Source of the DNA: Gammaproteobacteria bacterium
Lineage (GTDB): Bacteria; Pseudomonadota; Gammaproteobacteria; Steroidobacterales; Rariloculaceae
Assembly (NCBI GenBank): GCA_036381015.1
Contig: DASVDR010000029.1
Coordinates: 96,676 to 160,675 of the forward strand
DNA: 64,000 nt
Direction: 5' to 3'
In this document: one piece after another, positions 5,648-64,000 of the stretch
Layout of the letters: every line of letters begins with the position of its first letter
Position numbering within the stretch: the first letter of the stretch is position 1
The notes under the pieces: generated by a model
What the model saw: the letters and a program-made list of their open reading frames with translations, nothing else
What the model was told of the DNA's origin: nothing
The model's database searches: none
Program-made: the position numbers and the translations under genes

Positions 5648-6754
5648 TCACTCCTCTGGCGGTGTCTCCTCCTCGCTTTCCTGGAAGCGATCGACCGAGA
5701 GCCGGAGCCATTCCTGCACGTCGAAATTGACCCCCGCGTTCTCCTCCCCGACGAAGCGCGGGTTCGTGGTTTCGATGTAGTTTCGAACGACCGTGTTGCC
5801 CTCGTGGCAGGCGTACTCGAAGAACTTGTAGTCCTCGTTTCGGGTCCACGGGTAGGAGATCTTGAACGGGGCCGTGAGGACCTCCGGATCTTCGACCCAG
5901 GCTTCGTATTGAAGGGTATTCGGACCGGTCGGCGTGAGCCGCTCCGTGACGCGCAGCGATGGGCTCGTCGGGACGGGCTCGTTGCTCGGGCCGACGATCA
6001 CCATCGGGGAAAGGCCGTTGAAGTTCGTCGTCTCGATCACGAGCGAGTCGCCGTCCCAACGACCCCGCGAGATGCCGAGCCACTGCCGTATCTCCGCCGG
6101 CGGCGCGCGGTCGTCGAGCGGAACGATGCGCGTCTCGTGGATGAGCTCGAGCCGGATCACGACGTAGCCGGGCGTCTGGATGATCTCCACCCCGTTGTTG
6201 TACGGGAACGGAATCATCGAAGCGGGCATTCCGCGGGTGATGCAGCGGTCGAGGGCGTTGAAATCGGAGATCTCGTCGAACACATCCTCGGACCAGCTGC
6301 TCTTCATGTTCGCCGCCTCCGCACGACCGGCTTCGGTCATCGGCGGAATGCGGCCGTTCGCCGGCTCCATGATCAACGACGTCTGGCGCAGCGGCTTGCC
6401 CCACTCGAACCAATGGCCGGAACCGATCCGGTTGGCCTCGAGCTCCTCCTGGTAGTTGTCGGCCAGCTGGGCCGCCTGCTCGAGGGCCGCGGCATACTCC
6501 TCGTCGGTGAGCCAGGCGCGCTCCCCGAGCTCGGGCGGGCGTTGAAACGGCGTTTGGCCCGCGGAGTCGAGAGGCCACTTGCCCTGCAAATCGGGATCGC
6601 CCCAAGGCGTGCGCGGGGCGGTCCACGAGCTCGAATCCGTCTCGGCCGTTTGCACGTTCGACGTCTCTTGCGCAGCCGCGGAAACGGCGCCGAGGCAGAC
6701 GGCGAAGCCCAAGGACGCCGACAAAGCCTTCGTTGACGGGTGTCGCTTGTCCAC
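5648..6754 (-). CDS. Secreted protein of unknown function (recurring 'GxWxGdsLVIeTTNF...TER' domain)
   Basis: ORF 5648..6820 trimmed to a GTG with GGAGGA 7 nt upstream. Signal peptide ALSASLGFAVCLGAVSAAAQE. Lies directly upstream of TBDR paralog 1 on the same strand. Confidence 0.7.
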   Translation of the reverse strand: MDKRHPSTKALSASLGFAVCLGAVSAAAQETSNVQTAETDSSSWTAPRTPWGDPDLQGKWPLDSAGQTPFQRPPELGERAWLTDEEYAAALEQAAQLADNYQEELEANRIGSGHWFEWGKPLRQTSLIMEPANGRIPPMTEAGRAEAANMKSSWSEDVFDEISDFNALDRCITRGMPASMIPFPYNNGVEIIQTPGYVVIRLELIHETRIVPLDDRAPPAEIRQWLGISRGRWDGDSLVIETTNFNGLSPMVIVGPSNEPVPTSPSLRVTERLTPTGPNTLQYEAWVEDPEVLTAPFKISYPWTRNEDYKFFEYACHEGNTVVRNYIETTNPRFVGEENAGVNFDVQEWLRLSVDRFQESEEETPPEE

Positions 6755-6929
6755 GTGATTCGTCCTCCGTTTCGCTTGCGTCGAAGCCCCGATCTCCCCC
6801 GGGGCGCGCGATGAGATCAAGCGTAGGCAAGCGCCGCGGCGGCGTCAAAAGACGCGCCGCGGCCGGTGCGCGGCCGCGGCGGCGGGATCGGGCGGTGGAT
6901 GCCGAGCGGGCTGCGCAATCGCGGTCGGC

Positions 6930-8483
6930 TCAGCCGTGTATCCCGAGCTTCTTCAGCAATCGATGGAAATTGGCGCGATCGAGGCCGAGCGAGCGGGCCG
7001 CCGCCGCGCGGTTGCCTCCATGGGCTCGAATGCGTTGCAGGATCAGGTCGCGGCGAAAGTCGTCGACGGCGTCCCGCAAAGTCACGTCGATCTCGGGGAG
7101 CTCGATCTCGGGCACGGATGCGCCGTTCGACACTGCCGCTCGGGCGTCGCCGTCGGCGGCACCGAGGTGCCTCGGCGTCAGCTCGAGCAGCTGGTCGCGC
7201 GGCTGCCCCTCGGCCAACGCGCGGATGATCGCCCGCGACAGCGCGTGCTCCAGCTCCCGGACGTTGCCGGGCCACGAGTAGCTCTGCAGCCAGCGCCGGG
7301 CCGCCGCGCCGAGACGCACGCCGCGTAATCCGAGCCGCCGCTGGTTGCGCTCGAGGAAGTAGCCCGCGAGCAGCAGCACGTCATCGCCGCGCTCGCGGAG
7401 CGGCGGTACGCGGAGCGGGTAAACGCTGAGCCGGTGATAGAGGTCGGTCCGGAACCGGCCGGCGAGCACTTCCTCCTCGAGGTTGCGGTTCGTTGCGGCA
7501 ATCAGGCGCACGTCCACGCGCCGGGCGCGGTCGCAGCCCAGCCGCTGTATCTCGCCGCTCTGCAGCGCGCGGAGCAGCTTCGCCTGCACCGGGAGCGGCA
7601 GCTCGCCGACCTCGTCGAGAAACAGCGTGCCGTCATGGGCGAGCTCGAACTTGCCGATCCGATCCTCCGTCGCGCCGGAGAACGCGCCGCGCGCGTGTCC
7701 GAAGAGCTCGCTTTCCGCGAGCGACTCGGGCAGGGCCGCGCAGTTGATATGGACGATCGGCTCCTGCGCGCGGGCGGAGTGATGGTGAATCATTCGGGCC
7801 ACGAGCTCCTTCCCGACGCCCGTCTCGCCGAGGATCAGCACCGGCAGATCGGATGGTGCGACCGTGCGCGCCTCGCGCCGCACGCGCTGGATCGGCTCGC
7901 TCTCGCCGATCAGCTCGTCCGCCGCGCGCTCGCCGACGCCCGAGAGGTTGATCCGGTGGTGCCGCTCGAGCTGCATCTCGAGGCGCTCGATCCAGTCCGC
8001 CGCCCGCACCGTCGCCGCGGCGACCGCGGCGAACGCGCCGAACACGTCGTCGTCGATCGTCTCGAATTGCCCCGGCCGCAGCGCGTCGAGCGTCAGCACG
8101 CCCCACGGCTCGCCCTCGATGCGCAGCGCGACGCCCATGCAGTCGTGCACGTATAGGTGGCCGTTCGCGTTGTCGACGAGCCCGTCGTAAGGATCCGGGA
8201 GCGCGGAGTCTGCCGGAAAGCGTACAGCGGCACGGCTGTCGAGCAGCCGGGCGAGCCGCGGGTGCTCCGTGACGACGAAGCGGCGGCCGAGCGTATCCGG
8301 GCTGAATCCCTGCACCGCTCTCGGCACGAGCACGCTTCCGTCGAGCTCGAGCAGCGCGATCGCGTCGCAAGGGAAGCTCGCGCGAAACGTATCCAGCAAC
8401 CGCTGATAGCGGGCCTCGCACGGCATCGACTCGGTCAGGTCCGTGACGATGCCGGCGAGGCGGCTGAAGTTACGCGTCGTCAT
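6930..8483 (-). CDS. norR: NorR, NO-responsive sigma-54-dependent transcriptional activator (GAF-AAA+-HTH)
   Basis: N-terminal GAF region aligns by eye closely with E. coli NorR (RFPADSxLPDPYDGL, HPRLxxxxxxxxxVRF). AAA+ motifs GETGVGKE, GAFSGA (GAFTGA), ESELFGH. C-terminal Fis-type HTH. Confidence 0.9.
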   Translation of the reverse strand: MTTRNFSRLAGIVTDLTESMPCEARYQRLLDTFRASFPCDAIALLELDGSVLVPRAVQGFSPDTLGRRFVVTEHPRLARLLDSRAAVRFPADSALPDPYDGLVDNANGHLYVHDCMGVALRIEGEPWGVLTLDALRPGQFETIDDDVFGAFAAVAAATVRAADWIERLEMQLERHHRINLSGVGERAADELIGESEPIQRVRREARTVAPSDLPVLILGETGVGKELVARMIHHHSARAQEPIVHINCAALPESLAESELFGHARGAFSGATEDRIGKFELAHDGTLFLDEVGELPLPVQAKLLRALQSGEIQRLGCDRARRVDVRLIAATNRNLEEEVLAGRFRTDLYHRLSVYPLRVPPLRERGDDVLLLAGYFLERNQRRLGLRGVRLGAAARRWLQSYSWPGNVRELEHALSRAIIRALAEGQPRDQLLELTPRHLGAADGDARAAVSNGASVPEIELPEIDVTLRDAVDDFRRDLILQRIRAHGGNRAAAARSLGLDRANFHRLLKKLGIHG

Positions 8484-48745: not shown

Positions 48746-48795
48746 AAAATGGTGTCAGACACCTTTTTCGGAAATGGTGTCAGACACCTTTTTCG
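48744..48795. repeat. Palindromic repeat pair, locus A (2 x AAATGGTGTCAGACACCTTTTTCGG)
   Basis: Cores GGTGTC-A-GACACC are centred at 48757 and 48782 (25 bp apart), each flanked by an A-run and a T-run. Lies between convergent genes. Confidence 0.9.
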
Positions 48796-57455: not shown

Positions 57456-58289
57456 ATGATCGTCCACCTGATCGACGGCACCTACGAGCTGTTCCGGCAC
57501 TTCTACGGTCTGCGCCGCTTCACGAAGGGCAAGGACAGACCCTACGGCGCAGTCGTCGGTGTCCTCAACATGGTGCTGAAGATGATCGAAGGCGACGCGA
57601 CGCATTTGGGCGTCGCGACCGACCACGTCATCGAGTCGTTCCGCAACGAGCTCTGGCCCGGCTACAAGACCGGCGAAGGGATCGAGCGTGCGCTTCTCGC
57701 GCAATTCCATCCGCTCGAGGAAGCCCTCGCGGCGATGGGTGTTGCGGTCTGGCCGATGGAGGAGCTCGAGGCGGACGACGCGCTCGCGAGCGCGGCGCGC
57801 ATCGCCGCAGCCGACGAGCGCGTGCGGAAGGTCTGCATTTGGACGCCCGACAAGGATCTCGCGCAATGTGTGCAGGGCGATCGCGTCGTGCAAATCGTTC
57901 GCCGCGGCAAGGAGATTCGCGATGCGACCGGCGTGCGCCGCAAGTTCGGCGTGGATCCCGAGCGGATTCCGGATTTTCTCGCGCTGGTCGGCGATCCGGC
58001 CGACGGCTATCCGGGTCTGTCCGGCATCGGGCCGGTCACGGCCGCGCAGCTCGTGCGCCGATACGGCGCCATCGAGGACTTTCCTTCGGCGGTTCTCGGG
58101 AAGCGGCGCGAGACGGCTCTGCTGTTCAAGAAGCTCGCGACCCTGCGCACGGACGCGCCGCTATTCTCGAACGTCGAGGAGCTGCGATGGCGCGGGCCGA
58201 CGGCGGGCTTCGCCGAATACGCCGAGCGTCTCGGAAGCAGCCGTCTGACCGTGCGCTGCGAGAAGGCGAGCCGCCGCGCCGCAGGCTGA
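57456..58289 (+). CDS. 5'-3' exonuclease / flap endonuclease (PIN-like 53EXO + H3TH)
   Basis: MIVHLIDGTYELFR.., ..EADDALAS.., ..TPDKDLAQC.., ..DFLALVGDPADGYPGLSGIGPVTAAQLV... Alternative upstream ATG at about 57407. Confidence 0.85.
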   Translation: MIVHLIDGTYELFRHFYGLRRFTKGKDRPYGAVVGVLNMVLKMIEGDATHLGVATDHVIESFRNELWPGYKTGEGIERALLAQFHPLEEALAAMGVAVWPMEELEADDALASAARIAAADERVRKVCIWTPDKDLAQCVQGDRVVQIVRRGKEIRDATGVRRKFGVDPERIPDFLALVGDPADGYPGLSGIGPVTAAQLVRRYGAIEDFPSAVLGKRRETALLFKKLATLRTDAPLFSNVEELRWRGPTAGFAEYAERLGSSRLTVRCEKASRRAAG

Positions 58290-58296
58290 TCGAATC

Positions 58297-58353
58297 GAAA
58301 AAAAGGTGTCAGACACCTTTTTGGGAGAAAAGAGGTGTCTGACACCATTTTCT
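58297..58353. repeat. Palindromic repeat pair, locus B
   Basis: GAAAAAAAGGTGTCAGACACCTTTTTGGG followed by GAGAAAAGAGGTGTCTGACACCATTTTC. Cores centred at 58311 and 58340. Confidence 0.9.
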
Positions 58354-58441
58354 TGCGCGCCAACATAGCCGCTTCGTTCAAGCGCCGGGCGCGGCGCCAT
58401 GGGACACTGCATGCAGGCCACCCACCCAGCCGGACGCGCAG

Positions 58442-59140
58442 ATGAACACCTGTATCCGCCCGCGACCTCCCGCCGCCCCGGACCCCCGCACGACCTACAT
58501 GCGCCCGTTGCCCGCCGATCTCGTCGCGCTCGACTCCCGAGACGGGCGAGCGCTGTTCACGCAGGCGTTGACGGCGGGAACCATGGAAGGCTACTTCAAG
58601 CTGGCCCAGCAATTTCACACTCAATCGGATCCGGCCTATTGCGGTCTCGGGTCGCTCGTCTGCGCGCTGAACGCGCTGAACATCGATCCTGCTCGCGTCT
58701 GGAAGGGGCCGTGGAGATGGTTCAGCGAGGAGCTGCTCGACTGTTGCAAGTCGCTCGACGACGTCCGGCAATTCGGGCTCACGCTGGACGAAGCGGGCTG
58801 CCTCGCCGAGTGCAGCGGCGCGGCGGTCGCCATGCACCGGCCGCCGACCGCGAACGTCGACGCGTTCCGCGCGCACGCTCAGCGGGCCGCGACGGGAGCG
58901 GAGGGGCCGGTGCTCGTCGTGAATTACTCGCGACGAGCCTTGGGCCAGACCGGGGGCGGCCACTTCTCGCCGATCGGCGGCTACCACGTGCCGACGGACA
59001 AGGTGCTCGTGCTCGACACGGCCCGTTTCAAGTATCCGCCCCACTGGGTGCCCGTCGACCTCCTCTTCGACGCGATGGAGGACGAGGATCGGGACACGGG
59101 CCGCCCGCGCGGCTGGCTCCTGATCGACAAAGGCGCTTGA
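58442..59140 (+). CDS. Bacterial phytochelatin synthase-like papain-fold enzyme (PCS domain only)
   Basis: Catalytic triad contexts all present: QSDPAYCGLGSL (Cys), GGGHFSPIGGYH (His), VLVLDTARFKYPPHWV (Asp). Alternative start MRPLP at 58499. Confidence 0.85.
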   Translation: MNTCIRPRPPAAPDPRTTYMRPLPADLVALDSRDGRALFTQALTAGTMEGYFKLAQQFHTQSDPAYCGLGSLVCALNALNIDPARVWKGPWRWFSEELLDCCKSLDDVRQFGLTLDEAGCLAECSGAAVAMHRPPTANVDAFRAHAQRAATGAEGPVLVVNYSRRALGQTGGGHFSPIGGYHVPTDKVLVLDTARFKYPPHWVPVDLLFDAMEDEDRDTGRPRGWLLIDKGA

Positions 59141-59198
59141 CCGAAAAAAGGTGTCTGACACCTTTTTCGGGAAAAAAGGTGTCTGACACCTTTTTTTC
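59141..59198. repeat. Palindromic repeat pair, locus C
   Basis: CCGAAAAAAGGTGTCTGACACCTTTTTCGG (near-perfect 30-nt palindrome) followed by GAAAAAAGGTGTCTGACACCTTTTTTTC. Cores centred at 59156 and 59184. Starts 1 nt after the PCS stop. Confidence 0.9.
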
Positions 59199-59222
59199 TG
59201 TCGAGAGTCATAATTTGCGCTC

Positions 59223-60017
59223 ATGGACGCGGCGCAATTCTTCCGTGGCGGCTGGGTTCGCTTCCCGCACGCCCCCGAGGTTGCGGACTGGGCGGCACGA
59301 GCCCGCCCGGTGGCGGAGGCTTGCGTCGCGGACCCGGAACAACGCGCGCGCTGGCTGCGATGCGGCGGCACTTGGTTCGTCGGCGTCAACGTCTTCCCGA
59401 ACGATGCCGCCGGCGCCGTGCCGGAGGCGGGCGTGCCTCCGCTCGCGGGCCCGCCGGTCGAATTCATCGCGGAGGCGTTGAAGCTTGCGGTCGGATGGGA
59501 CAGGGGGCAGATCTCGGCCTGTTTTCCCGGCTATCCCCGGCCCTCGGCCGGCGAATCCGCGGCCGCGTTCCGCTTTCGCCGCGACCGTGACGCGGCGCAT
59601 GTCGACGGTCTACAGCGCTTCGAGAGTCGGCGTCGCCGGCTCGGCGAGCTGCAAGGCTTCATCCTCGGCGTGCCGCTGACGGACGCTCCCGCCGGGGCCG
59701 CGCCGCTCGTGGTGTGGGAAGGCTCGCATGAGGTGATGCGCCGCGCGCTGCGCGCACGGCTCGCCGACGTGCCGACGGAGCGCTGGAGGGACGAGGACCT
59801 TACCGACGCTTACGTCGCGGCCCGGCGCGAGTGCTTCGAGACGTGCCGCCGCGTGCCGCTTCACGCGCGCCCCGGCGAGTCGTATCTGATTCACCGGCTC
59901 GCACTGCACGGCGTCGCGCCCTGGAGCGCCGCGCCGGCCGGCGAGCGCCTGATCGCGTATTTCCGCCCGAATCCGTTTCCGGACGCCGCTCCCGATTGGT
60001 GGCTGGACCGGCCCTAG
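59223..60017 (+). CDS. Hypothetical protein, possibly PhyH-like Fe(II)/2-oxoglutarate oxygenase superfamily
   Basis: AAHVDG (HxD), VVWEGSHE, and LIHRLALHG (distal His) resemble PhyH-type spacing. By-eye call only. Confidence 0.45.
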   Translation: MDAAQFFRGGWVRFPHAPEVADWAARARPVAEACVADPEQRARWLRCGGTWFVGVNVFPNDAAGAVPEAGVPPLAGPPVEFIAEALKLAVGWDRGQISACFPGYPRPSAGESAAAFRFRRDRDAAHVDGLQRFESRRRRLGELQGFILGVPLTDAPAGAAPLVVWEGSHEVMRRALRARLADVPTERWRDEDLTDAYVAARRECFETCRRVPLHARPGESYLIHRLALHGVAPWSAAPAGERLIAYFRPNPFPDAAPDWWLDRP

Positions 60018-60079
60018 CACGTGCCGCCGAGCCGGCATCCGCCTAGAATCGACGGCGGCCGAGCCAGAGAGATTCGCCC

Positions 60080-60346
60080 GTGCCCCACGCAGCATCCGGT
60101 CTCGACGCCGACCGCCTCGCCCACCTCGAGGCGACGATCCACGCCGACATCGAAGCGGACCGCTACTTCGGCGCGGTCGTTGCCGTCGCGCGCCGTGGCG
60201 AGCTCGGCCTTTGCGAGGCGATCGGCTTCGGCGACGAGGCGCTCGAGATGACGTTCGTCTGCCTGTCGGCCGGCGTGATGCAGCCCGCGCCGAACATCGA
60301 GCGGTTTCAGCGGCTGTCCGACATCGCCGCGTCGGCGGCGTTGTGA
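60080..60346 (+). pseudogene. N-terminal stub of a serine hydrolase (beta-lactamase/transpeptidase-like family)
   Basis: (GTG)PHAASGLDADRLAHLEATIHADIEADRYFGAVVAVARRGELGLCEAIGFGD.. matches the usual N-terminus. It then diverges before any SxxK motif and stops at 88 aa. Confidence 0.5.
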
Positions 60347-60516
60347 GGCGGCCCCCCGGTTGATCCGGCCTCCCGCGGATGGTCTACTCGCCCCCTGCGG
60401 CGGGAACCGCTCGCACCGCAAGCGGTGGCCCGGTCGCATTCGCCCGGATAGAGTGTTCCCCGGGGGGGCAGGGGGCCGGCGGCGGACCGGCCTGGTGCGG
60501 GGAAGGAGGAGCTTTG

Positions 60517-62103
60517 ATGGTAAAGCGTGGGGTCGATCGGCTGTTCGCACGGAAATCGGTCGAGCAAATGCACGCCGAGCACGAGCATGGGGAGCTCAAG
60601 AAGACGCTCGGCGCACTGAATCTCGTTCTGCTCGGGGTCGGCTGCATCATCGGCACGGGTATTTTCGTGCTGACGGGCAGGGCGGCTGCCGAGTTCGCCG
60701 GGCCCGGCATCATGATCTCGTTCATCATCACGGGAACGCTGTGCGCGCTCGTGGCGCTCTCTTACGCGGAGCTTGCGGCGGCAATACCGGTCTCGGGCTC
60801 GGCGTATTCGTACTCGTACGCCTCGATGGGCGAGATGGTCGCCTGGATCATGGGCCTGCTGCTGGTGCTCGAGTACGGCCTCGCGGCGTCGACCGTGGCG
60901 GTAGGCTGGTCGGGATACGTCGCGAGCTTCTTGCACGACATCGGCATCGATCTGCCCCCGGCGCTGCGCGCCGCGCCGGGGGTCGAGGTCACGGATTTCA
61001 CCAGCGGAGCGGTGGTTGGCACCGGCGCCGTCAACTTGCCCGCCTTGATCGCGATCATCGCCGTGAGCGGCCTCCTCGTGCTCGGTGTCTCGGAATCGGC
61101 GCTCGTCAACAACATCATCGTGTTCATCAAGACGTCGGTCATCGTCGCGTTCATCGTGATCGGCGCATTCTTCGTGAACCCCGATCTCTGGACGCCGCTG
61201 ATTCCGCCCCAGCAGCCGCCGCCGCCGGCCGGCGCGGATGCGGGCATCTGGAGCCAGATCGGCAGCGCGCTCTGGGCCGTCCTCACCGCGCAAAGCACGG
61301 GCCAGTACGGCGTGCCGGGGCTCATCACCGGCGCCGCCACGATTTTCTTCGCGTACATCGGTTTCGAGGCGGTGTCGACCGCGGGCGCGGAATCGAAGAA
61401 CCCGGCGAGGGACATGCCGATCGGCATCCTCGGCTCCCTGATCATCTGCACGATTCTTTACATCCTCACGTCGGGGGTGCTCGTCGGAATCGTCCCGTAC
61501 ACGGACCTCGACGATCCCGCGCCGATTGCGAAGGCGGTCAACCAAATCGGGCTGCCATGGTTCGCCGCGCTCGTGAAGATCGGCGCCATCGCCGGTCTCT
61601 CGTCGGTGATGCTCGTGCTGCTCTACGCGCAGACGCGCATCTTCTACACGATCGCGCGTGACGGTCTGATCCCGCCCGTCTTCGCGGTCGTGCACCCGAA
61701 GTTCAAGACGCCGTGGATCAACACGATCATCGTCGGCGTCGTCGCGTGCGGTTTCGCGGGATTCATGGGGCTCGACGCGCTCGCGAATCTGACGAACGTC
61801 GGCACGCTTGCCGCGTTCACGATCGTCTGCTTTACGGTGCTCTATCTTCGATATGCCAGGCCCGACATGCGCCGGCCGTTCAAGACGCCGCTGTTCCCGG
61901 TGACCCCGCTCCTCGGCGCCGTCATGTGCTTGTTCTTGTTGATGTCGCTGATGGCGCACGAGGCGACGCGTAACTTCTTTCTCATCTATCTCGGGTTCGG
62001 CTTCCTTCTCTACTTCGTGTACGGCGTGTGGAACTCGAAGCTCGGGAAGGGCATCGTCGTCGGGGGCCATGAGGAGGTCATGCCTCCCGGAATCGCCGAC
62101 TGA
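60517..62103 (+). CDS. APC-superfamily amino acid permease (cationic amino acid transporter-like)
   Basis: GGAAGGAGG SD. ..LKKTLGALNLVLLGVGCIIGTGIFVLTG..AGPGIMISF.. 12-14 TM. Inner ATG of ORF 60379..62103. Confidence 0.9.
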   Translation: MVKRGVDRLFARKSVEQMHAEHEHGELKKTLGALNLVLLGVGCIIGTGIFVLTGRAAAEFAGPGIMISFIITGTLCALVALSYAELAAAIPVSGSAYSYSYASMGEMVAWIMGLLLVLEYGLAASTVAVGWSGYVASFLHDIGIDLPPALRAAPGVEVTDFTSGAVVGTGAVNLPALIAIIAVSGLLVLGVSESALVNNIIVFIKTSVIVAFIVIGAFFVNPDLWTPLIPPQQPPPPAGADAGIWSQIGSALWAVLTAQSTGQYGVPGLITGAATIFFAYIGFEAVSTAGAESKNPARDMPIGILGSLIICTILYILTSGVLVGIVPYTDLDDPAPIAKAVNQIGLPWFAALVKIGAIAGLSSVMLVLLYAQTRIFYTIARDGLIPPVFAVVHPKFKTPWINTIIVGVVACGFAGFMGLDALANLTNVGTLAAFTIVCFTVLYLRYARPDMRRPFKTPLFPVTPLLGAVMCLFLLMSLMAHEATRNFFLIYLGFGFLLYFVYGVWNSKLGKGIVVGGHEEVMPPGIAD

Positions 62104-62118
62104 CGATTCGCGTCGGCG

Positions 62119-62207
62119 GTGCGCCGGGATCGCGTTGGCTTGAGCACGCACCCCGAGCCCGGTCGGGACTTCGATTACATCATCGTCGGCGCGGGCACGA
62201 GTGCGAC
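62119..62207 (+). pseudogene. N-terminal stub of a GMC-type FAD oxidoreductase
   Basis: ..GRDFDYIIVGAGTSA.. (FAD-binding GxGxxG start of GMC enzymes). The reading frame then becomes Arg/Ser-rich nonsense, and a different gene fragment starts in another frame at 62208. Confidence 0.4.
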
Positions 62208-62597
62208 GTGGGGTCGCGAGCGGCGTTCCTGCGAGTGGCGGACGATTTCGGGGACCGGACCGGTCGGATCGACGCGATCGTCAACAACGCGATGCTTCTC
62301 CACTATTGCCCCGTCGATCAGGTCGAGCCCGAACGGCTCGACGCGATGCTCGACGTCGGCATCAAAGCGCTCTTCTGGTCCGCGCAGGCGCTCGTCGCGC
62401 ATTACGACCCGGAGCGTGGGGCGAGCTTGATCAACATGGCTTCGCCGGTCGCCTTCCGCGGCTATCCGGGCACGTCCGCGCACAGCGCCGTGAAAGGCGC
62501 GGTGGTCGCCTTCACGCGAGTGATGGCCGCGGAGCTCGGACCGACATCGTCGCAAACCCAGGAGCACCTGATGATTCCGCCGAATCAGGTGGCTTAG
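62208..62597 (+). pseudogene. Internal fragment of a short-chain dehydrogenase/reductase (no N-terminal Rossmann motif, truncated C-terminus)
   Basis: ..FGDRTGRIDAIVNNA..(NNAG region)..SLINMAS..GTSAHSAVKGAVVAFTRVMAAELGP. The catalytic YxxxK reads HSAVK (Tyr to His). No TGxxxGIG segment. Confidence 0.55.
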
Positions 62598-62765
62598 GGG
62601 CCGGCTTCTCCGAAGCTCCCCGCGGGAGCTCGGTTTGCCGTTCTCTTCGGCGACCCGGCGAAGCCCGGCGAGCCGTACGCATTCCGGGCGAAATTGCCGG
62701 ACGGATATAATGTTCCGCCCCACTGGCATGAGCATGTCACCGTGATGAGCGTTGCTCGACGCTAG
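62598..62765 (+). pseudogene. Fragment of a cupin-domain protein (no start codon, truncated)
   Basis: The frame opening at 62598 gives ..PKLPAGARFAVLFGDPAKPGEPYAFRAKLPDGYNVPPHWHEHVTVMS.. then a stop. It lacks both the N-terminus and the second cupin motif. Confidence 0.45.
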
Positions 62766-62812
62766 CGTCAGGCGAGACGCGCTCTATCGAGCAGAATGCC
62801 TTCGACACACGC

Positions 62813-63777
62813 ATGAGCACACGGCACTTCGACGCGGTCATCATCGGTGCAGGCGCCGCCGGCCTGTGCGCGCTACATCGACTCCGCGAGCTCGGGCTCA
62901 CCGTGCAGGCGTACGAGCGCGCGAGCGGAGTCGGCGGCGTTTGGTACTGGAACCGCTACCCGGGCGCCCGATTCGACTCGGAAAGCTACACGTACTGCTA
63001 TTCGTTCTCGCCTCAGCTCCTCGAGGAATGGAGCTGGAGCGAGCGATTCGCCGCGCAACCCGAGGTGCTCGCGTACCTGAACTACGCGGCCGAGAAGCTC
63101 GATCTTTTGCGCGACATTCGCTTCGAGACGGAGGTCGTCTCCGCGCGGTACGACGCGCGGGACCACTCGTGGCTCATCGAGACCGACCGCGGCGAGCGCA
63201 CGCGGGCGCGTTACCTGATCGCCGCGGTCGGCCCGCTGTCCGCCTACCAGCTGCCCGACATCGACGGCGTCGACACGTTCGAGGGAGAGCACTACCACAC
63301 GGCCCGCTGGCCTCATGACGACGTCGATCTTGCCGGCAAGCGGGTCGGCGTGATCGGCACCGGCGCGACGGGTGTTCAGGTCATCCAGACGATCGCACCC
63401 GACGAAGACTGGCGCGAGATTCGCCGCAACTATCCCGCGATATTCGCGCGATGCCGCGAGACCTTCGGCGGCTTCGTGCACGGGTTCGATCTTCGCTCGG
63501 GACGCGAGGTGACGCCCGAGGAACGCGAGGCGATATTCGAGTCCCTTTGGGCCCGGCGATCGCGCCGAGCGTCGACGCCGAGCATGCGTGGACGGCGCAC
63601 GTCCGCGAGGCGGCCGACGCGACGCTCCTCGCCCGTGACACGAGCTCGTGGTTCTTCGGCGCGAACACGCCCGGTAAGGCGAGAAGCGTCTCGATCTACG
63701 CGCCCGGCGCCGCTGTGTACCGCGAACGATGCGACGACGTCGCAAGGCGCGGCTACGAAGGGTTCGAGTTCCGCTGA
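62813..63777 (+). pseudogene. Baeyer-Villiger (flavin-containing) monooxygenase with internal deletions and a frameshift
   Basis: MSTRHFDAVIIGAGAAGL..GGVWYWNRYPGARFDSESY..FEGEHYHTARWP (BVMO fingerprint)..GKRVGVIGTGATGVQVIQTIAP. The TVFQR-type segment is then missing, and the frame is lost after ..AIFESLW. The C-terminus ..SSWFFGANTPGKARSVSIYAPGAAVYRERCDDVARRGYEGFEF* is in another frame. About 320 codons against ~540 expected. Confidence 0.7.
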
Positions 63778-63794
63778 CGAACCGAGCGCCGGGG

Positions 63795-64000
63795 CTACCG
63801 GACGGTCGGCAAGATCGGCGTACACGCCCAAACCGCGTCCGGCTGCGCGTCGGTTCGGGCAAGCGCCGCCCGCACCGCGCCGTCGCTCGGCGCGCGGACG
63901 ATGCAAACGGCTCTCGGCTCGCGGATCGACACGAAGCCGCGCACGAGCGCCGCGTCTTCCTGCTCCAGCGCGGTTGCGACGCCGTCGAGGCTTCGAGCCT
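63795..64000 (-). CDS. Possible C-terminal end of an unidentified CDS entering from the right edge
   Basis: The reverse frame reads ..LDGVATALEQEDAALVRGFVSIREPRAVCIVRAPSDGAVRAALARTDAQPDAVWACTPILPTVR*. Plausible composition, but no family recognised. Confidence 0.25.
   Translation of the reverse strand, partial: ARSLDGVATALEQEDAALVRGFVSIREPRAVCIVRAPSDGAVRAALARTDAQPDAVWACTPILPTVR

Follow-up and report, generated by a model that had tools for sequence, protein, structure and literature searches.

Alcohol dehydrogenases, a Baeyer-Villiger monooxygenase (BVMO) and an esterase, acting in this order, make a biochemically sensible set, as in the chn, mek and acm clusters, and the short-chain dehydrogenase/reductase (SDR), GMC oxidoreductase and esterase families also occur in the clusters for cyclohexanol (chn), methyl ketones (mekAB) and acetone (acmAB). 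As to the fate of inactivated genes, bacterial genomes show a deletional bias and young pseudogenes are quickly removed (Kuo & Ochman 2010, PMC2916853), and an excess of deletions in multiples of three nucleotides, flanked by microhomology, has been found in bacterial pseudogenes and attributed to alternative end-joining (Danneels et al. 2018, PMC6054270). Here we describe the region at 60.0-63.8 kb of a 64,000-nt stretch of DNA from an uncultured, soil-type proteobacterium (the window; contig DASVDR010000029.1, G+C ~67%), in which remnants of an esterase, a putative GMC oxidoreductase, an SDR, a cupin and a BVMO lie around one intact permease gene. We consider it highly probable that the genes of this region were inactivated recently and form a locally confined cluster, which is being erased by illegitimate (microhomology-type) deletions.

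A first-pass annotation, made from the sequence letters, had proposed five enzyme fragments within 3.8 kb. Three-frame translation of 59.95-64.0 kb located all of these pieces, four of which showed strong homology to known families. The coordinates are collected in the table.

Table. Features of the decayed stretch and of its surroundings (window coordinates)
Feature	Position	Strand	Basis
Family VIII esterase/class-C beta-lactamase-like remnant, 88 aa	60080..60346	+	N+C fusion, homology to L163
APC-family amino-acid permease, BcaP-like, 528 aa, intact	60517..62103	+	Pfam, NCBIfam, relatives
Putative GMC-type FAD oxidoreductase N-terminal stub, MRRDRVGLSTHPEPGRDFDYIIVGAGTSA	62119..62203	+	frame translation
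Classical SDR core, about residues 62-176 of roughly 255	62204..62544	+	Pfam, alignment P0012-P0058, blastn L164
Secreted DUF4437/Cupin_2-type cupin fragment, about residues 22-93 of roughly 130-160	~62559..62750	+	search and alignment
Type I BVMO pseudogene	62813..63777	+	L083 orthologue, PDB mapping
BVMO, N part	62813-63402	+	
BVMO, middle part	63403-63552	+	
BVMO, C part, to original stop	63556-63777	+	
3' end of convergent downstream gene, apparently intact; right-hand limit of decay	63795..64000	-	syntenic with L083 2673-3191
Palindromic element pairs	48749-48790, 58303-58348, 59148-59192	intergenic	AAAAAGGTGTCWGACACCTTTTT

The concatenated reading of the BVMO remnant matched the PDB steroid monooxygenase (STMO) 4aos (549 residues) with an E value of 1.2e-89, in residues 19-214, 241-292 and 481-545 only. 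Missing are STMO residues 215-240, corresponding to the VVFQRTP segment, and 293-480, about 188 residues of the central part. In its frame-1 translation the remnant shows GAGAAG as the FAD motif, FEGEHYHTARWP as the fingerprint and GTGATG as the second motif; the C-terminus is also retained. It thus carries the motifs that define Type I BVMOs (FAD GxGxxG, FxGxxxHxxxW[P/D] and NADP GxGxxG); a continuous open reading frame (ORF) of ~530-550 aa with complete NADP and helical domains is absent. A scan of metagenome contigs identified an intact orthologue of 532 aa at positions 1062-2660 of the JGI metagenome contig Ga0079224_100067007 (L083), which is collinear with the window by blastn in three segments: L083 1033-1651 with window 62784-63402 (88.7% identity), 1720-1873 with 63399-63552 (89.6%), and 2439-2876 with 63556-63998 (81.5%). 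In a register-by-register alignment to L083, the first lesion is an in-frame loss of 72 nt, by which HEVDRLVVFQRTPTYCMPQRNAPL, including VVFQRTP, was removed. In the second lesion, at about 63553, 565 nt of L083 correspond to 3 nt, a net loss of 562 nt that shifts the frame. Both junctions are ambiguous over ~2-5 nt (microhomology). The mapping to 4aos and L083 bore out the earlier description of a BVMO without its TVFQR-type segment and about 200 central residues and with a frame change. The gene is unable to make a BVMO.

The dN/dS ratios of the three BVMO remnants against L083 were 0.12, 0.19 and 0.18, at dS values of 0.31-0.51 (Nei-Gojobori), and no stop codon or small indel was found in ~318 BVMO codons. 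The low ratios and the absence of such lesions indicate that the inactivation is recent and that nearly all of the divergence arose under purifying selection. The 108-aa ORF at the BVMO C-terminus had no identical protein on record in an exact-protein look-up. After the frameshift, the frame-1 reading of the BVMO (62813->64000, + strand) remains open beyond the window end, and a shadow frame of 329 aa runs antisense to the BVMO (62873-63862, - strand); both could be mis-called as genes, and a long open frame over the BVMO would mislead automatic annotation.

The 88-aa ORF upstream of the permease had been interpreted as the N-terminal stub of a serine hydrolase. It proved to be a real remnant, of the esterase family, and more than an N-terminal stub: since both of its ends match the two ends of a full-length gene in L163, the ORF is evidently an in-frame fusion of 53 N-terminal codons (codons 1-53, 60080-60238) with 35 C-terminal codons including the original stop (codons 54-88, 60239-60346). 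L163 6355-6515 corresponded to window 60079-60238 (74% nucleotide identity) and L163 7408-7518 to window 60238-60348 (85%). The full-length homologue in L163 (~6335-7516) encodes ~390 aa and carries SLTK in translation. Compared with this gene, ~890 nt have been deleted in frame, amounting to ~300 codons including the SxxK nucleophile motif; the L163 SLTK region lies within the deleted part, and neither SxxK nor the ~380-430-aa catalytic domain of the PF00144 family is present in the window. Homologues carrying the C-terminus ...DMTFVCLSAGVMQAAPNIERFQRLSDIAASAAL were found at an E value of 1e-11, the closest database proteins identified ...LEMTFVCLSAGVMQPAPNIERFQRLSDIAASAAL as the C-terminus of a beta-lactamase-fold protein, and the N-terminal part gave a weak PDB esterase match. 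The nearest database proteins match the last ~two-thirds of the query only, and in the homologue search the N+C architecture was found in no database protein. The ORF is identical to the NCBI hypothetical protein VF329_11305, whose contig is 229,014 bp long, and this 88-aa "hypothetical protein" of the public record is a gene remnant and no gene.

Some relatives of this remnant deserve separate mention. Four separate 90%-identity clusters (P0002, P0005, P0007 and P0008) are each exactly 143 aa long and, within the esterase family, have the start MPWVGG... in common, and contig breaks recur at the same spot of these pieces across different assemblies. At least one 143-aa ORF (L168 36-467) begins 35 nt from a contig edge. 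We considered the 143-aa homologues of the esterase C-terminus as genuine small proteins and rejected them, as they are pieces of a frame-disrupted full-length gene (L163) or a contig-edge ORF (L168). The L163 homologue itself (6335-7516 of an ENA contig) changes frame twice and is read in three segments, and several of its neighbours, among them a thiamine pyrophosphate enzyme and a major facilitator superfamily protein, are likewise split; these split genes are due either to indel errors of long reads or to decay at a further locus.

The SDR fragment matched the Pfam adh_short profile at positions 53-170 of 195 (E 1.7e-20) and is 79-84% identical to its closest homologues; its DNA limits were set by blastn to L164. 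Alignment with full-length members of ~255 aa showed that the Rossmann N-terminus with its TGxxxGxG motif is missing, as is the last third of the protein. The catalytic tyrosine, present in 11/11 aligned homologues, has become histidine (SAHSAVK, i.e., HSAVK for YxxxK), which leaves the fragment without the Ser-Tyr-Lys signature of classical SDRs and agrees with the earlier reading of an SDR core lacking its Rossmann N-terminus and with YxxxK changed to HxxxK. The ORF of this fragment was found in the Logan gene calls only and is not among the NCBI proteins. Of the SDR homologues, the one closest to the window fragment (P0015, L167 239-895; 84% identity) has ~36 internal residues fewer than its relatives, so that this SDR family shows a further internal deletion in frame, in a different metagenome.

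A start-less cupin fragment had likewise been noted, and its identity was supported by 1028 matches at E<=1e-3 among 1.84 billion representative proteins, obtained with the 55 codons 3' of a TAG codon (best match 84% identical, E 1e-18). The full-length relatives are ~130-160 aa long with a signal peptide and match DUF4437, Cupin_2 and Cupin_7 (Pfam, including P0075). Two lesions had been missed by the first reading. A TGG-to-TAG change at 62595-62597 replaces an invariant tryptophan (W18), and in the alignment the homology runs on upstream through the TAG; a 9-nt deletion after 62729 has removed P-x-D from the HWHPxDE metal motif, leaving HWH-EH. The fragment has no start codon, signal peptide or C-terminal half with motif 2, and thus neither an intact motif 1 (HxH(x)3-4E), nor motif 2, nor a complete beta-barrel.

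Between the permease and the SDR fragment, starting 16 nt past the permease stop, lies a piece of ~13-28 aa that ends inside a GxGxxG motif and had been described as a GMC oxidoreductase FAD-motif stub. The piece is present; a significant match is not. Only DFDYIIVGAGTSA is diagnostic, the best PDB match was a GMC enzyme at a weak E value of 0.4, and searches of Pfam and NCBIfam at permissive E values and of a large protein database (42-aa query) returned no match and no candidates, respectively. In a motif census of 86 ORFs with dinucleotide-binding motifs in 2.19 Mb of fetched loci, [FY]D[FY][IV]I[IV]G[AS]G occurred among the classifiable ORFs in GMC genes only (3/3), the fourth match being a truncated ORF of 49 aa. 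The motif is thus GMC-typical and not statistically demonstrable, and the assignment as a GMC-type stub is plausible only.

The permease had been singled out as the only intact gene of the stretch, and our data support this. Pfam AA_permease_2 aligned at positions 1-420 of 427 (E 3.9e-50), the relatives, up to 83% identical, align across residues 1-528, and the ORF is uninterrupted with a full-length AA_permease domain, as in 12-transmembrane APC permeases. NCBIfam BcaP matched at E 1.3e-165, under the equivalog cutoff, and an exact-protein look-up found no identical records for either of the two start variants. In 80 genome loci of permease relatives (<=83% identical), we found no neighbour in common with the window, and the fragment families were absent next to the permease. 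The nearest relatives (77-83% aa identity) belong mostly to metagenome-assembled genomes (MAGs) of Hyphomonadaceae, Terricaulis and Caulobacterales (Alphaproteobacteria). The source MAG carries the label Gammaproteobacteria, a mismatch that could stem from horizontal transfer or from a loosely assigned MAG taxonomy. A stop-free shadow frame of 614 aa, of a kind typical of high G+C, runs antisense to the permease (60307-62151, - strand) and could likewise be mis-called as a gene.

Alignment to full-length homologues, as suggested with the first annotation, mapped the deletion end-points for the BVMO (L083), the esterase (L163) and the cupin. The homology of the pieces, their loss of motifs and the local character of the decay are demonstrated as well. 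Since each remnant lacks a defining catalytic or cofactor motif, none is able to encode an active enzyme. The original genes would have needed at least ~5.7 kb of coding sequence (esterase ~1.18, GMC ~1.63, SDR ~0.77, cupin ~0.49 and BVMO 1.60 kb), of which ~1.85 kb is left, and at least seven deletions, ranging from 9 nt to at least ~1.7 kb, are required to account for this. Four of these are intragenic (~890, 9, 72 and 562 nt; all except one being multiples of three). The other three are gene-to-gene junctions, GMC to SDR, SDR to cupin, and cupin to the region upstream of the BVMO, with 0-33 unassigned nucleotides between the pieces and no foreign sequence; single deletions are the most economical reading of these junctions. 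The homology is collinear and gapped, the junctions contain no insertions of mobile DNA, and scans for mobile and RNA elements at the decayed stretch and its junctions found no insertion sequence (IS)-like repeats, tRNA or Rfam elements. The claim that deletions rather than IS insertions shaped the stretch was thus upheld, through the four intragenic lesions seen against L083, L163 and the cupin homologues. The Rfam and promoter/terminator scans were otherwise uninformative. Each of the three gene-to-gene deletions would have fused a gene that had lost its end with a following gene that had lost its start. Alternative end-joining or replication slippage is a possible mechanism for the deletions in general, and purifying selection presumably kept them out of the permease and the convergent downstream gene. 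The remnants contain one stop only in ~1.85 kb and essentially no 1-2-nt indels. From the BVMO dN/dS data we roughly estimated the age of the pseudogenes at a few percent of dS or less and the deletion-to-substitution ratio at near 0.1, a ratio compatible with stepwise decay. The strong deletional erosion proposed at first holds within 60.0-63.8 kb and is local: coding is normal in the remaining 60 kb of the window, with a dense tiling of ORFs and full Pfam coverage of the neighbouring ORFs. Genome-wide reduction was rejected for the window on the basis of these normal long ORFs and their full domain coverage.

Several observations weigh against this interpretation. About 13 residues carry the GMC assignment. 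No relative was found to have the five genes intact in this arrangement, and the three gene-to-gene junctions consequently have no ancestral reference. Many medium-to-large deletions without 1-2-nt indels make an unusual size spectrum for gradual decay. Furthermore, the window derives from a MAG, because the contigs of a second assembler (Logan, run SRR25158368) and the NCBI record match it, and the same reads underlie both assemblies; the BVMO junctions at 63402 and 63553 fall outside the retrieved cover of the second assembly (57641-63049). Chimeric metagenome joins or a collapsed mixture of strains could thus have produced the fragments from a real genome with intact genes, as the source is a third-party MAG contig, the BVMO junctions have no confirmation from the second assembly, and this assembly is fragmented here (contig ends at 57641, 61696/61718 and 63049), suggesting low coverage or strain variation. 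We nevertheless regard an assembly artefact as very unlikely. The second-assembly contigs L081 (window 57641-61718) and L082 (61696-63049) are both 100% identical to the window, an agreement that runs without a contig break through the fusion point of the esterase, all three gene-to-gene junctions and the 9-nt deletion in the cupin. A de Bruijn mis-join needs a shared k-mer of at least 31 nt; the overlaps at the junctions are ~1-5 nt, far under any assembler k-mer, and the junction flanks are repeated elsewhere in the window at chance-level lengths of 14-16 nt only. In addition, all fragments are collinear and share one orientation, as would not be the case for random chimeras.

The few point lesions beside so many deletions might also be explained by one clustered episode of DNA damage and repair, in which several breaks were rejoined in order by end-joining, e.g., after attack by a self-targeting nuclease. 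At least seven deletions in an ancestral stretch of at least 6-8 kb, remnant dN/dS values of 0.12-0.19, the absence of 1-2-nt indels from the BVMO and SDR remnants, and the kept order and orientation of all pieces agree with such an episode. The cupin (stop) and the SDR (Tyr to His), however, carry extra point lesions that the BVMO and esterase do not, suggesting different ages, stepwise decay is compatible with the deletion-to-substitution ratio estimated at roughly 0.1, and direct evidence for the mechanism is nil; we therefore regard a single episode as unlikely. We attach a similarly low probability to the broader idea that the deletions came from one burst or from locally raised end-joining, be it chromothripsis-like multi-break repair or selected erasure of a newly useless operon; if true, it would capture the speed and route by which dead genes are purged in free-living bacteria. 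Finally, the short ORFs might be genuine small genes or minimised domains, with the 88-aa ORF, for example, serving as a permease leader or promoter carrier. The esterase remnant has its own start, stop and frame 170 nt upstream of the permease, and NCBI annotates it as a protein. This explanation appears extremely doubtful to us, as the N+C architecture was found in no homologue, the other matches are to the C-terminal two-thirds and come from longer genes or contig-edge pieces, and catalytic motifs are lost throughout (SxxK in the esterase; TGxxxGxG and the tyrosine in the SDR; motif spacing in the cupin; a segment of the NADP domain in the BVMO). One of the findings that would have overturned the first annotation, namely short ORFs existing as genuine small proteins in relatives, did not emerge, the 143-aa candidates being pieces of the kind described above.

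Taken together, these results favour erasure by deletion of recently inactivated genes; whether the five genes had belonged together is a separate matter. The first-pass annotation had proposed a former catabolic island. At family level, among 80 BVMO loci, SDR genes were found in the flanks of 33 and GMC genes in three, directly upstream of the BVMO in one case (L135). A family VIII esterase homologue occurred in two of the 80 loci, with a strong match in one (L097) and a weak match in the other. The intact arrangement was found neither in L083 nor among the relatives of the permease, the SDR and the cupin, the SDR and cupin relatives lying in other gene contexts. The L083 locus, the nearest to the window, is ~89% identical to it in nucleotide sequence where the BVMO remnants align, and the two have the convergent downstream gene and a short stop-to-stop spacer in common; in contrast, the L083 BVMO is full-length (532 aa), and upstream of it the other strand encodes a small membrane protein, in place of a cupin, SDR or GMC gene. 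Upstream of ~62784 the window and L083 are unrelated, the shared synteny being confined to the BVMO and the downstream convergent gene. It is plausible but unproven that the five genes once formed one BVMO-type cluster for ketone/ester catabolism, and larger deletions may have placed the pieces side by side. A locus with an SDR, a beta-lactamase and a GMC gene together (L165) was considered as a candidate and rejected, as its beta-lactamase comes from an unrelated subfamily and only the generic motif accounts for the match of its GMC N-terminus.

Immediately upstream of the decayed stretch, a 264-aa ORF (59223-60017) showed a weak match to PhyH-type dioxygenases (E 0.0017) and no NCBIfam match. 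A paired palindromic element of 17-23 nt, AAAAAGGTGTCWGACACCTTTTT, occurs at three intergenic sites of the window (six matches versus zero expected). Two of the pairs flank a phytochelatin-synthase-like gene (58442-59140, PF05023), and long hairpins are possible; the pairs look like repetitive extragenic palindromic (REP)-like elements or bidirectional terminators.

Compared with the type I BVMOs of known structure, STMO (4aos) and phenylacetone monooxygenase (1w4x), the gene in the window is broken by two deletions and a frameshift; its N part still aligns with STMO at an E value of 2e-77 over residues 19-214, and the FAD motif, fingerprint and C-terminus are kept. As in the window, SDR, GMC and esterase families stand beside the BVMO gene in some BVMO loci; a family VIII (beta-lactamase fold) esterase, as found here, is rare in them, and no relative has the exact cluster. 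The decay itself resembles that of published bacterial pseudogenes (PMC2916853, PMC6054270) in its shortening by deletion, the microhomology at the junctions, the deletions in multiples of three (3/4), the absence of a mobile element and its young age. It differs from the published spectra, in which deletions of <=15 nt dominate, in that the deletions in the window are mostly of 72 nt to >1 kb. We regard it as known biology, namely deletional bias, and as an ordinary phenomenon rather than a new kind of system. Unlike a host-restricted bacterium with a genome in reduction, the organism is presumably free-living, and the five adjacent genes hit are surrounded by normal coding. The window shows at good resolution how the erasure of pseudogenes begins in a free-living, uncultured bacterium, with an essential-looking transporter spared in the middle of the stretch.

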